NCBI GenBank assembly: GCA_000217635.1
Contig: CP001817.1
Location: forward strand, 90,001 to 122,000
Reading direction: 5' to 3'
DNA length: 32,000 bases
Source: Candidatus Saccharimonadota bacterium
GTDB lineage: Bacteria; Pseudomonadota; Gammaproteobacteria; Enterobacterales; Enterobacteriaceae
Shown: in pieces, positions 25,774 to 31,716 of the stretch
Position numbering within the stretch: position 1 is the first letter of the stretch
How the letters are laid out: every line of letters begins with the position of its first letter
Notes under the pieces: model-generated
Databases searched by the model: none
What the model was told of the DNA's origin: nothing
Seen by the model: only the letters and a program-made list of their open reading frames with translations
Translations under genes and position numbers: made by a program

Positions 25774-27777
25774 TTAAAAATTATATAAACGGATGAAAAT
25801 ATTTTTACATCCGTTATATAATATTTGAGTGATATATGAAAATATTTTATATAATTTATGGTTATTTTTTTTGTTTTCTTTTACTTCTTCAAATTCTGCA
25901 TCTTCAACATTTTCTGTTTTTTTATTATCATTAATATCATTTGGTTGATTTTTATTATTTTCTTCGTTTTGTTGAATTTTTGTGATATTTTCATTTAGTT
26001 TAATAACATTTGTTATTTTTTCTTCTATATTTTTTTTGTTCTCTCCTTTTAAAGCTATTTCTAAATCTTGTAGAGATTGTGAGATTTCATTTTTTATAGA
26101 GTTTGAAATTTTATCTTTATATATTTCTAATTGTTTTTTAGTACTATGGATTAGTTGATCGCCTTGATTACGTACTTTTACTAATTCTTCGAATTGTAAA
26201 TCTTTTTCAGCATTTTCTTGAGCTTCAGAAATCATTTTTTTTATTTCAGATTCATTCAATCCAGATGATGCTTGTATTGTGATTTTTTGTTCTTTTCCGG
26301 TTGTTTTATCTTTTGCAGAAACATGCAAAATTCCATCAGAATCAATATCAAAAGTTACTTCAATTTGTGGAATTCCTCGTGGAGCACCTTGAATTCCATC
26401 TAAATTAAATTGTCCTAATGATTTATTATCTGCTGCTCTTTTTCTTTCTCCTTGTAAAATGTGAATTGTAACAGCGGATTGATTATCTTCTGCAGTAGAA
26501 AAAACTTGGCTATGTTTTGTAGGAATAGTAGTATTTTTTCCTATTAATGGAGTCATAATTCCACCCATAGTTTCTATACCTAAAGATAAAGGTGTAACAT
26601 CTAATAATAAAACATCTTTTACATCTCCAGACAATACTCCGCCCTGTACTGCAGCACCAACCGCAACCGCTTCATCAGGATTAACATCTTTTCTTGGTTC
26701 TTTTTTAAAGAAATCTGCAACCTTTTTTTGTACTAATGGCATCCTTGTTTGCCCACCTACTAAAATGACATCATGAATTTGTGAAATATTTAATCCAGCA
26801 TCTTTTAGTGCCACTTGTACAGGATTGATAGATTTCATAATTAAATCTTCAACTAAAGATTCTAATTTTGATCTGGTAACTTTAATATTTAAATGTTTTG
26901 GACCAGTTTTATCAGCACTAATATATGGTAAATTTACATCTGTTTGTTGAGCAGAGGAAAGTTCTATTTTTGATTTTTCTGCAGCTTCTTTTAATCTTTG
27001 CATTGCTAAAGGATCATTTCGTAGATCTATTCCTTGTTCTTTTTTAAATTCATTTACTAAAAAATTAATTAATCGATTATCAAAATCTTCACCACCTAGA
27101 TGTGTATCTCCATTTGTTGCTAATACCTCAAAGGTTTTTTCTTTATCAACATCATCAATTTCTATAATAGAAATATCAAATGTTCCTCCGCCTAAATCAT
27201 ATACAGCTATGGTACGATTTCCTTTACCTTTATCTAATCCATATGCTAATGCAGCTGCGGTAGGTTCATTAATGATTCTTTTGACATTTAATCCTGCTAT
27301 TCTTCCGGCATCTTTTGTAGCTTGTCTTTGAGCATCATTAAAATAAGCAGGAACAGTAATAACAGCTTCTGTCACTTTATGTCCTAAATAATCTTCAGCA
27401 GTTTTTTTCATTTTTTTTAAAATTTCTGCAGAAATTTGAGGTGGAGCAATATTATCATTATTTACTTTTATCCATGCATCTCCATTATTTGATTCAATAA
27501 TTTTGTATGGCATAATTTTTAGATCACGTTGAATATCATCTTCTTTAAATTTTCTTCCAATTAATCTTTTAATGGCAAACAATGTATTTTTTGGATTTGT
27601 TATAGCTTGTCGTTTTGCTGGTTGACCTACTAATATTTCATTATTTAATGTGTAAGCAATGATAGAAGGAGTGGTTCGATCTCCCTCAGCGTTTTCTAAA
27701 ACTCGAGCTTTAGTTCCATCCATGATTGCTACACATGAATTTGTTGTTCCTAAATCAATTCCTATAATTTTACTCAT
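25774..27777 (-). CDS. dnaK: chaperone DnaK (Hsp70); the ORF runs 28-29 codons past the conserved C-terminus
   Basis: Near-identical to E. coli DnaK from [16 protein letters not shown] through AEFEEVK.. . The ORF is 667 aa versus 638 in E. coli. One extra A in the A8 run (25865-25872) would create TAA and give exactly 638 aa. Confidence 0.96.
25788..25815 (-). other. dnaK-dnaJ intercistronic stem-loop (AACGGATG / CATCCGTT)
   Basis: A perfect 8-bp inverted repeat, at 25788-25795 and 25808-25815, with a 12-nt loop. It is GC-richer than its surroundings and lies inside the 28-codon tail of the dnaK ORF that extends past the conserved C-terminus. Confidence 0.55.
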
Positions 27778-28157: not shown

Positions 28158-28535
28158 ATGACATTATATAATTCAAGGCAAGTTGATAATTTTTTATTTT
28201 TATTTGTGGTAGTTTTTTATTTGTATGATTATGTTATTATGTGGTTTTTTTTAGGTGCAAAATCTGAATCTAAAAATAGAGATATACCTTTTGAATCAGG
28301 CGTTAATACTGTTGGACGAATTAATTTACGAATGCCTATTCAGTTTTCTTTATTTGCTATTTTATTTGTAATTTTTGATGTTGAGGCTTTTTATTTATAT
28401 TTATGGTCAGTTAATGTAGAGGAAGTAGGTTGGATAGGTTTTTTTGAAATATTTTTTTATTATAATGTTTTTAATTACTATCTTGTATTTAATAAAAAAA
28501 ATATGTTAAAATGGATTTTATCTCATAAAGAATAA
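28158..28535 (+). CDS. nuoA: NADH-quinone oxidoreductase subunit A; the ORF is open but probably contains two short out-of-frame patches
   Basis: SKN.....PFESG....G......P..F...A..FVIFDVEA.YL..WS.......GW.GF.E matches E. coli NuoA. It is the first gene of a nuoA-B-CD-E-F series. Confidence 0.88.
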   Translation: MTLYNSRQVDNFLFLFVVVFYLYDYVIMWFFLGAKSESKNRDIPFESGVNTVGRINLRMPIQFSLFAILFVIFDVEAFYLYLWSVNVEEVGWIGFFEIFFYYNVFNYYLVFNKKNMLKWILSHKE

Positions 28536-28639: not shown

Positions 28640-29320
28640 ATGAAATATACATTAACACGTATTCATAAAAAAAAAAAATAAATTGTTAAAATCCTATCCT
28701 TTACGTGATGTACAAACAGCTATAGATCCATTTGAAGAATATTTAAAAAAATAATATTTTTTTTGGAAGTATTGCAAAATTTTTTCACAAATGTGTTAAC
28801 TGGGGCCGTAAAAATTCTTTATGGCCATATAATTTTGGTCTTTCATGTTGTTATGTAGAAATGGTTAGTGCTTTTACTTCGATACATGATGTATCTCGTT
28901 TTGGTTCAGAAGTATTACGCGCATCTCCTAGACAGGCAGATTTTATGGTTATTGCTGGTACACCATTTATAAAAATGGCTCCTGTAATACAACGATTATA
29001 TGATCAAATGTTAGAACCTAAATGGGTAATTTCTATGGGATCTTGCGCTAATTCTGGTGGTATGTATGACGTGTACTCAGTGGTACAAGGTGTTGATAAA
29101 TTTATTCCTGTAGATGTCTATATCCCCGGTTGTCCTCCAAGACCTGAAGCATATATTCATGGTTTACAGTTATTACAAGACTCAATTTCTCAAGAACATA
29201 GACCATTATCTTGGGTAATAGGAGAGCAAGGTATATATAAAGCTGATTTTGTTGCGGAAAAGAAAAAAAAATATTAATAGAATTGCTGTAACTAATATTT
29301 CAAATGACGATATTATTTAA
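28640..29320 (+). pseudogene. nuoB: NADH-quinone oxidoreductase subunit B, interrupted by three +1 A-run frameshifts (slippage-rescued gene, pseudogene or assembly error)
   Basis: Four consecutive frame segments reconstruct a full NuoB. They are MKYTLTRIHKKK / [24 protein letters not shown] / [41 protein letters not shown]...GCPPRPEA...PLSWV / [15 protein letters not shown]. For comparison, E. coli has MDYTLTRI..., ...[23 protein letters not shown]..., and ...RIAVTNLRTPDEI*. The ORF track only shows 28861-29277. Confidence 0.88.
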
Positions 29321-29443: not shown

Positions 29444-31204
29444 ATGAAAAATATTTCAACTTGTTCCATTGTTTCTTCTTTATTTCAACATTTTGGAAAA
29501 GAAAATTTTTTTTCTCAAAAAACATATTTAGACTGTCCGGTATTGTGGATTGATCGTTCTTTATTGTTAAAAGTAATTCAATATATATATGATTTTAAAA
29601 ATAATACATATTCAATATTATTTGATTTACATGGTACCGATGAACGTTTACGAAAAAATCGTATTTTTCTTCCTGAAAATATTGATTTTTCTGTATTTTA
29701 TCACTTTCTTTCGATTTATGATAATAGTGATTTAATGATTAAAGTTGCTTTATTAAAAGATCATTTAAAATTACCAACCATATCATCTATTTTTTTAAAT
29801 GCTAATTGGTATGAACGTGAAACATGGGAAATGTTCGGAATAACTTTCACTAATCATCCGCATTTAACTAATCTTTTAATGCCAGGTAATTGGGTTGGAC
29901 ATCCATTAAGGAAAGATTATCCATCAAGAGCAACAGAGTTTGACTCATTTTTTTTTAATAAACAAAAAGAAGAATTAGCGATGGAAAATCTTAATTTTAA
30001 ACCAGAATCTTGGGGTTTAAAAGAAAGTCAAGATGGATTAGATTATATGTTTTTAAATTTAGGTCCAAATCATCCATCTTCTCATGGTGCTTTTCGTATA
30101 ATTTTACAATTATATGGTGAAGAGATTATTAATTGTGTTCCTGATATAGGATACCATCATCGTGGTGCAGAAAAAATCGCTGAAAGACAATCTTGGCATA
30201 GTTATATTCCATATACTAATCGTATTGAATATTTAGGCGGGTGTATTAATGAAATGCCATATGTTTTAGCAGTAGAAAAATTAGCTGGTATTACTGTACC
30301 CAGTAAAGCTGAAGTAATTCGTATTCTTTTATCTGAATTATTTCGTATTAATAGTCATTTACTATTTATTTCTACTTTTATTCAAGATACTGGTAGTATG
30401 AGTACCGTTTTTTTAGCTTTTACAGATAGACAAATCATTTATGATTTGATTGAAGAAATTACAGGTGCCCGTATGCATCCTGCATGGTTTCGAATAGGTG
30501 GTGTAGCAAAAGATTTACCAAAAAATTGGTCAATTTTATTAAAAAAATTTTTAAAATGGTTACCAAAACGATTAAATTTTTATATAAATGTAGCTTTAAA
30601 AAATAGTATTTTAATTTCTCGCTCTAAAGGTGTTGCATCATATAATCGTAAAAATGCGTTATCATGGGGAGTAACTGGTGCAGGATTAAGAGCCACAGGA
30701 ATTAATTTTGACATACGTAAATGGAGACCATATTCTGGATATCAGAATTTTGATTTTGATATACCAATTGGTGATAATTATAGTGATGCGTATACCCGTG
30801 TTTTATTAAAAGTTGAAGAGATTAGACAAAGTTTAAGAATATTGCAGCAATGTTTAAAAAATATGCCGTCAGGACCCTTTAAATCAGATCATCCATTATC
30901 AACTCCACCTAATAAGTCTAATACAATGCAACATATCGAAACTTTAATCACACATTTTTTACAGGTTTCATGGGGTCCAGTTATACCAGCGAATGAAAGT
31001 TTTCAGATGGTTGAGGCTTCTAAAGGTGTTAATAGTTATTATTTAATTAGTGATGGTAGTACAATGAGTTATCGTACTAGAATTCGTACTCCAAGTTTTG
31101 CTCATTTACAACAAATTCCTGCAGTAATTAATGGATCGTTAATATCAGACTTAATTGTTTATTTGGGTAGTATTGATTTTGTGATGTCTGATGTTGATCG
31201 TTAA
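29444..31204 (+). CDS. nuoC: NADH-quinone oxidoreductase fused subunit C/D
   Basis: 586 aa with very high identity to the E. coli fused NuoCD ([72 protein letters not shown] ... [13 protein letters not shown]). It appears intact. Confidence 0.96.
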
Positions 31205-31246: not shown

Positions 31247-31716
31247 GTGTTTCAATTAAGTAAAACTGAAATTTCAGAAATCAATATAAAAAAAAACATT
31301 ACTCTGATATGAGAGCTGTTTCTATAGAAGCTTTAAAAATTGTTCAGAAAAATAGAAAATGGATATGTACGGATGCAATTCTTTCTATTGCTACTATTTT
31401 AGGTATTTCAGCGGAAGAGGTAGAGGGTGTAGCGACTTTTTATTGTCACATCTTTCGTCAACCTGTAGGGCGTAATATAATTAAGTATTGTGATAGTGTA
31501 GTTTGTTTTATTAATGGATATTTAGATATTGAAAAAAAGTTAATGCAATTGTTAAAAATCAAAATTGGGGAAACAACACAAGACGGAAGATTTACTTTAT
31601 TACCAACATGTTGTTTAGGGGCATGTGATAAAAGTCCAGTATTATTGATTAATGAAGATATACATCATAACTTAACAGGTGATTGTATTTCTCATTTATT
31701 GGAAAAATATAAATAA
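31247..31716 (+). CDS. nuoE: NADH-quinone oxidoreductase subunit E, with a 5'-proximal frame jump at an A9 run
   Basis: ORF 31309-31716 matches E. coli NuoE from [13 protein letters not shown] onward ([41 protein letters not shown]). Upstream, GTG 31247 (AGGAAA 8 nt before it) opens [16 protein letters not shown], matching E. coli [24 protein letters not shown] (E. coli HYEDPRAAS) joins it only if the run 31288-31296 has 10 (or 7) As instead of 9. Confidence 0.85.

Follow-up and report, generated by a model that had tools for sequence, protein, structure and literature searches.

The three frame breaks that interrupt nuoB, the gene for NADH-quinone oxidoreductase subunit B, in the deposited sequence CP001817.1 are probably wrong homopolymer lengths in an old assembly, and they most likely do not constitute a real biological feature. 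Sequencing error is the most likely origin of the nuoB breaks because the same kind of break hits about 40% of the conserved genes of this genome and not those of its relatives. The window under study, a stretch of 32,000 nucleotides, corresponds to positions 90001-122000 of a genome that consists of a single contig of 444,925 bp. It is AT-rich (~23% GC) and contains dnaK on the minus strand followed by nuoA, nuoB, nuoCD, nuoE, and the start of nuoF, all on the plus strand. The genome (G000 in our set) matches Buchnera aphidicola of Cinara tujafilina (BCt, CP001817.1), an aphid symbiont. It was published in 2011 and was presumably obtained by 454 pyrosequencing. DNA of C. tujafilina was sequenced in the same laboratory by 454 FLX/Titanium, and the genome of the Serratia co-symbiont obtained there, for which HiSeq 2000 data were generated, needed Illumina polishing (PMC4122931). 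The comparison was built on the sister genome, that of Buchnera of C. confinis (G013, 443,747 bp; PMC11193766), and on an outgroup, Buchnera of C. cedri (BCc, G010, 416,380 bp; PMC11193766).

As written, nuoB (28640..29320, plus strand) is made of four segments that succeed one another in frames 0, 1, 2, and 0 again, as delineated by tblastn in the three frames, by Pfam, and by homologues. The first segment, in frame 0 from the ATG at 28640, reads MKYTLTRIHKKKK before a stop, and the second, in frame +1, ends with EEYLKK and a stop. The third, in frame +2, starts with NNIFFGS, passes through GCPPRPEA, ends with AEKKKKY and a stop, and forms a core of 173 residues, while the fourth, the C-terminal tail, lies in frame 0 once more. 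The frame changes at three runs of the plus strand, A12 (28667..28678), A7 (28745..28751), and A9 (29263..29271), that is at 4%, 15%, and 92% of the gene; positions and lengths are exactly those of the original prediction. Each run carries one base too many, or, for A9, two too few, the addition of two A's at this run giving in the alignment a protein equal in length to that of the relatives. A12 is directly followed by TAA (28679-28681), A7 by TAA as well, and A9 by TAT TAA. These TAA triplets, which had been pointed out, are indeed present but uninformative, because AAA-AAT-AAx shifted by one base yields them automatically. The stops in nuoB are solely those made by the shifts; the gene contains neither substitution stops nor larger deletions.

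A full-length NuoB is restored, as had been proposed, when each of the three runs is shortened by one A. The resulting 225-residue protein scores 89.9 bits against the Pfam family PF01058 (Oxidored_q6, cut-off 27), which places it within this family, and its best homologues are the NuoB proteins of Buchnera from Cinara species, with 74-85% identity. Independent support comes from a frameshift-aware alignment which, without prior knowledge of the runs, called three events of one extra base at 28671, 28747, and 29264. The motifs GLSCCYVEM and PGCPPRPEA are identical to those of the relatives in the alignment, and the read-through product displays the conserved-cysteine pattern of the family (CCxxE ... 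C ... CP), whose cysteines are the established ligands of the iron-sulfur cluster N2 in NuoB. With 85% identity to the closest Buchnera NuoB and with GLSCCYVEM and GCPPRPEA kept, this product differs from its counterparts by the written frame only, its sequence content being ordinary. The longest ATG-started open reading frame of the broken gene (138 aa, 28861..29277, plus strand, from the ORF list) begins 3' of both adjacent cysteines of GLSCCYVEM, a motif conserved in all relatives; deprived of this cysteine pair, it therefore would not provide a working NuoB alone.

Examination of the relatives shows that the three lesions are private to the CP001817.1 record. Indeed, each of the other 16 genomes of the genus has nuoB as a single open frame, including the sister genome (86% nucleotide identity), which has an in-frame A10 at the A12 site; at the A7 site, the relatives have an in-frame AAAAAATAAT (Lys-Asn-Asn). 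This private character distinguishes the nuoB lesions from those poly(A) frameshifts of Blochmannia and Buchnera that are conserved under selection. Exact look-ups with the 138-aa frame and with NuoCD, together with a homologue search in which no hit exceeded 85% identity, returned no independent copy of the locus of this strain, and pattern scans over two of the nuoB runs in metagenome and genome contigs gave no match. The original prediction that all four segments retain orthologue-like sequence holds true, and both alignment and dN/dS indicate that they are under purifying selection. Against the sister, dN/dS amounts to 0.145 for the whole gene and 0.049 for the core, the intact nuoCD reaching 0.124 against the closest relative. 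Private amino-acid changes number eight in the C. tujafilina symbiont and six in the sister, all of them in the variable tails and none in the core, and the alignment reveals neither an acceleration on the C. tujafilina branch nor an excess of private changes. When all genes are ranked by similarity to the outgroup, nuoB stands at the 43rd percentile. Purifying selection of this kind is a property of slippage-rescued genes, and assembly error predicts the same.

The behavior of the rest of the genome was established by a census of frame jumps, called by a purpose-written frameshift-aware protein-to-DNA alignment. Pairwise alignment at the DNA level was dropped because, at ~80% identity in AT-rich sequence, it opened paired gaps by the hundred that were spurious. 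When BCc proteins served as a neutral query, symmetrically against the C. tujafilina and sister genomes, 263 frame jumps were detected in 146 of the 349 genes of the former versus 86 in 70 of the 358 genes of the latter, and much of the sister's figure is alignment noise (short runs and upstream parts of stop-to-stop ORFs). At least one event is thus found in about 40% of the conserved genes of the C. tujafilina symbiont and at least three in 27 of the 349; three events in the 680 bp of nuoB exceed the genome average. At A/T runs of 7 bases, events affect 42 of 1,120 runs in the C. tujafilina genome and 0 of 1,201 in the sister. Corresponding figures are 25/531 versus 2/625 at runs of 8 bases and 18/218 versus 2/292 at runs of 9 bases, which brings the pooled counts for 7-9 bases to 85/1,869 versus 4/2,118. 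Solely at runs of at least 10 bases do the rates draw near each other (9/118 versus 7/190). A second census, with the sister's proteins as query, gave 57 events in BCc, of which 10 fall in its 2,283 runs of 7-9 bases, and 276 in the C. tujafilina genome, of which 136 fall in 1,905 such runs. The C. tujafilina genome is therefore the outlier among the three.

Several features of these jumps are those expected of assembly errors. They are confined to homopolymers, they occur with both signs, and their rate climbs as the runs lengthen, being 0.5%, 1.2%, 1.9%, 3.8%, 4.7%, 8.3%, and 8.2% for runs of 4 to 10 bases, respectively. Furthermore, the lesions are absent from close relatives obtained independently, namely the sister and BCc; the excess of one-base jumps at A/T runs in the C. 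tujafilina genome, absent from both, amounts to ~200. As regards sign, 150 events lack a base and 113 have an extra one. The three lesions of nuoB do share one sign, as initially pointed out, but this is unremarkable because such a genome-wide split gives P ~0.26 for three alike. Runs of at least 10 bases number 152 in the C. tujafilina genome, 264 in the sister, which is less AT-rich, and 626 in BCc, a deficit that fits under-calling of long runs. The sister has a small set of jumps, mainly located at runs of 10-12 bases (for instance 318197-318208, 325418-325429, and 64659-64669), that look like genuine endosymbiont poly(A) frameshifts of the classical type. The rRNA genes, considered as an orthogonal test of error, have too few long runs for this purpose, and what sets them apart from the relatives is solely the loss of one base from a C3 run. 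In the 23S rRNA gene, at ~378,914 of the C. tujafilina genome, C3 is written C2 within GAAATACCACCCT, a motif identical in both relatives; either the short run was miscalled or a highly conserved helix has truly changed.

The census also speaks to the constraint acting on the affected genes. The rate at runs of at least 7 bases is 4.2% in the least conserved third of genes, 5.8% in the middle third, and 3.9% in the most conserved one, and is thus independent of gene constraint or essentiality, as assembly error would have it. Likewise, the divergence from the outgroup of genes with at least three events has a median ratio of 1.01 to that of clean genes. Uncompensated shifts are located in the first 20-50 codons of the genes for SecA, HisS, FtsA, TrpS, and ThrB, where the N-terminal peptide, although displaced into the other frame, retains its conservation; if real, such N-terminal shifts would abolish indispensable single-copy genes. 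The idea of a mutator lineage was rejected, MutS and MutL domains being absent from all four Cinara Buchnera genomes tested; such a shared absence therefore cannot account for a difference between genomes.

The position of the events within genes carries a further signature. Whereas runs of at least 7 bases are themselves evenly spread along genes, the uncompensated events at these runs number 10, 5, 0, 0, 0, 3, 2, 8, 14, and 12 in the successive deciles of gene length; they lie toward the gene ends and are lacking between 20% and 50%. Pairs of opposite sign are frequent in the C. tujafilina genome (~45 within 150 nt, or in a second count 52 within 120 nt versus 9 in the sister), and these compensated pairs are uniformly placed along genes. 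This distribution shows that some filter acted on the deposited sequence. The filter was presumably a curation or annotation step rather than raw error or selection alone: selection could account for a bias toward the C-terminus, but it would not spare breaks at the N-terminus. Mid-gene breaks that truncate an open reading frame may have been repaired or compensated during curation, those near either end being spared, and such an end-biased pattern is what filtering by ORF length or by BLAST coverage would yield. The three events of nuoB fall in the zones where uncompensated events survive. The likeness to the known homopolymer miscalls of 454 sequencing in AT-rich endosymbionts is close, with one-base changes in A/T runs that depend on run length, have both signs, occur at a rate independent of constraint, and are absent from relatives. 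The difference resides in the confinement of uncompensated events to gene ends and in the over-representation of pairs, which point to an added layer of curation. The cause would lie in the sequencing chemistry combined with incomplete curation.

The surroundings of nuoB conform to this picture. The original prediction presented nuoB as broken amid clean neighbors; this is correct for nuoCD (29444..31204, plus strand), which is intact with 586 aa and no event inside, but the claim fails for the operon as a whole, since nuoA, nuoE, nuoG, and nuoI display the same kind of homopolymer lesion as nuoB, and for the genome, given the ~40% of genes affected. In nuoA (28158..28535, plus strand), an open ORF of 125 aa, the census records three events, and three-frame translation discloses two stretches that are out of frame. 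The first stretch, FFICMIMLLCGFF, lies in frame +1 at ~28213-28251 between a T6 and a T8 run, the second, IIMFLITILYLI, in frame +1 at ~28440-28501 between a T7 and an A8 run, and both match NuoA of the relatives. Judged from these translations, nuoA holds compensated shift pairs hidden in an open ORF, with both stretches predicted to be membrane helices. nuoE (31247..31716, plus strand) is broken near its start, the switch being located at A9 31288-31296: the first ~21 codons lie in another frame than the body of 135 aa, while NuoE of a relative is a single frame of 156 aa.

Elsewhere in the window, DnaK is 667 aa long as compared with 634 aa in the closest relative, and the tail of its ORF (3' end at 25774-25900, minus strand) consists of ~33 unrelated extra residues, which suggests that the run 25865-25872 is off by one base, with loss of the usual stop. 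Other A/T runs display frame jumps as well, at 936/984, 8735/8765, 9163, 18762, 19196/19244, 19906, and 24912/24993; several of these form pairs of opposite sign, separated by 30-80 nt, and do not close the ORF. The genes concerned are presumably thrS, glyS, carA, dapB, and dnaJ, names that we assign by sequence recognition.

Slippage, very recent lesions, and mis-assembled run lengths had all been put forward to reconcile the broken nuoB with its preserved neighbors. The last of these is the one favored by our analysis, and the lean of the original prediction toward an interesting contradiction is not sustained. Slippage nonetheless deserves consideration, as slippage rescue is established in Buchnera and Blochmannia (Tamas et al. 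2008; Wernegreen et al. 2010; Williams and Wernegreen 2010, PMC3017870), and nuoB resembles the genes concerned in being an intact, selected gene of an AT-rich obligate symbiont broken at an A run, with the appropriate tract length in the case of A12. Known cases have just one indel, within a tract that is long (usually at least 9-10 bases), and are often conserved, while nuoB has three indels, one of them in an A7. Among the nuoB runs, A12 alone attains the length (~9-10 bases or more) of the genuine poly(A) frameshifts seen in relatives; none of the 16 relatives carries any of the lesions, all being in frame at the three sites, and every lesion requires the removal of a base. That all three breaks are real and that full-length NuoB arises by slippage at three A runs in succession is highly improbable, even though the four segments are orthologue-like and under purifying selection. 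Three independent corrections would be needed, each of them a deletion, the rarer kind of slippage at homopolymers in Buchnera (PMC5574713), and with a best yield of ~30% per site, among those given in PMC3017870, no more than ~3% full-length product is expected over the three sites. A7 is moreover shorter than the ~9-bp RNA:DNA hybrid needed for efficient slippage, and conservation of the frameshift, the hallmark of selected cases, is found in no relative. Extending slippage to the whole genome fares no better: it is hardly credible that run lengths are right throughout, with ~200 real lesions in ~40% of genes (secA and those for aminoacyl-tRNA synthetases among them) read through because the polymerase or the ribosome slips pervasively at A/T runs down to 7 bases, nuoB being corrected three times per molecule.

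A mixed case, in which A12 is a genuine poly(A) frameshift partly corrected by slippage of the RNA polymerase (or of the ribosome) and A7 and A9 are assembly errors, is unlikely but has points in its favor. A12 alone might be genuine because relatives jump at runs of at least 10 bases at about half the rate of the C. tujafilina genome (7/190 in the sister versus 9/118), so that the excess attributable to error is just about two-fold at such lengths. The sister's in-frame A10 at this site moreover denotes a long-standing slippage-prone tract, and single long poly(A) frameshifts are rescued with ~30% of full-length transcripts, according to PMC3017870, which cites Tamas 2008. Yet A12 needs a base removed from the transcript, while homopolymer slippage in Buchnera is overwhelmingly insertion, with 151 of 157 insertions located in runs versus 16 of 57 deletions and no restoration of frame transcriptome-wide (PMC5574713). 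The A12 shift is, in addition, found in none of the 16 relatives, and the assembly's own error rate at long runs is high. It is very unlikely, finally, that the three lesions all exist in the bacterium and arose recently, nuoB being a young pseudogene and complex I on its way to being lost. Three independent frame breaks in one gene, the homopolymer lesions of nuoA, nuoE, nuoG, and nuoI, and the lack of mismatch repair in Cinara Buchnera, which should make indels at runs frequent, could be read in this manner. Against it, nuoB displays no relaxed selection, as judged from the core dN/dS, the lack of private changes in the core, and the 43rd-percentile similarity to the outgroup; substitution stops and larger deletions, the marks of further decay, are absent from it, and its partner nuoCD is intact. 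SecA, the aminoacyl-tRNA synthetases, and FtsA share such lesions and cannot all be pseudogenes, and no jump at a 7-base run occurs among the 1,201 of the sister, which is equally deficient in repair.

The breaks of nuoB, if real, would have made a core subunit of complex I depend on three slippage events, a striking case of error-dependent expression. With wrong homopolymer lengths as the preferred explanation, the value of the nuoB case lies instead in a practical warning about the CP001817.1 reference record, which appears to hold ~200 homopolymer-length errors; automatic re-annotation would therefore call nuoB, nuoE, secA, hisS, and many others pseudogenes. Studies of Lachninae symbionts that deal with gene loss, retention of complex I, or slippage rescue should discount the lesions of this genome until it is polished with accurate reads. 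In the living bacterium, nuoB would most likely be an ordinary, intact gene of 225 codons, and complex I would most likely be complete.
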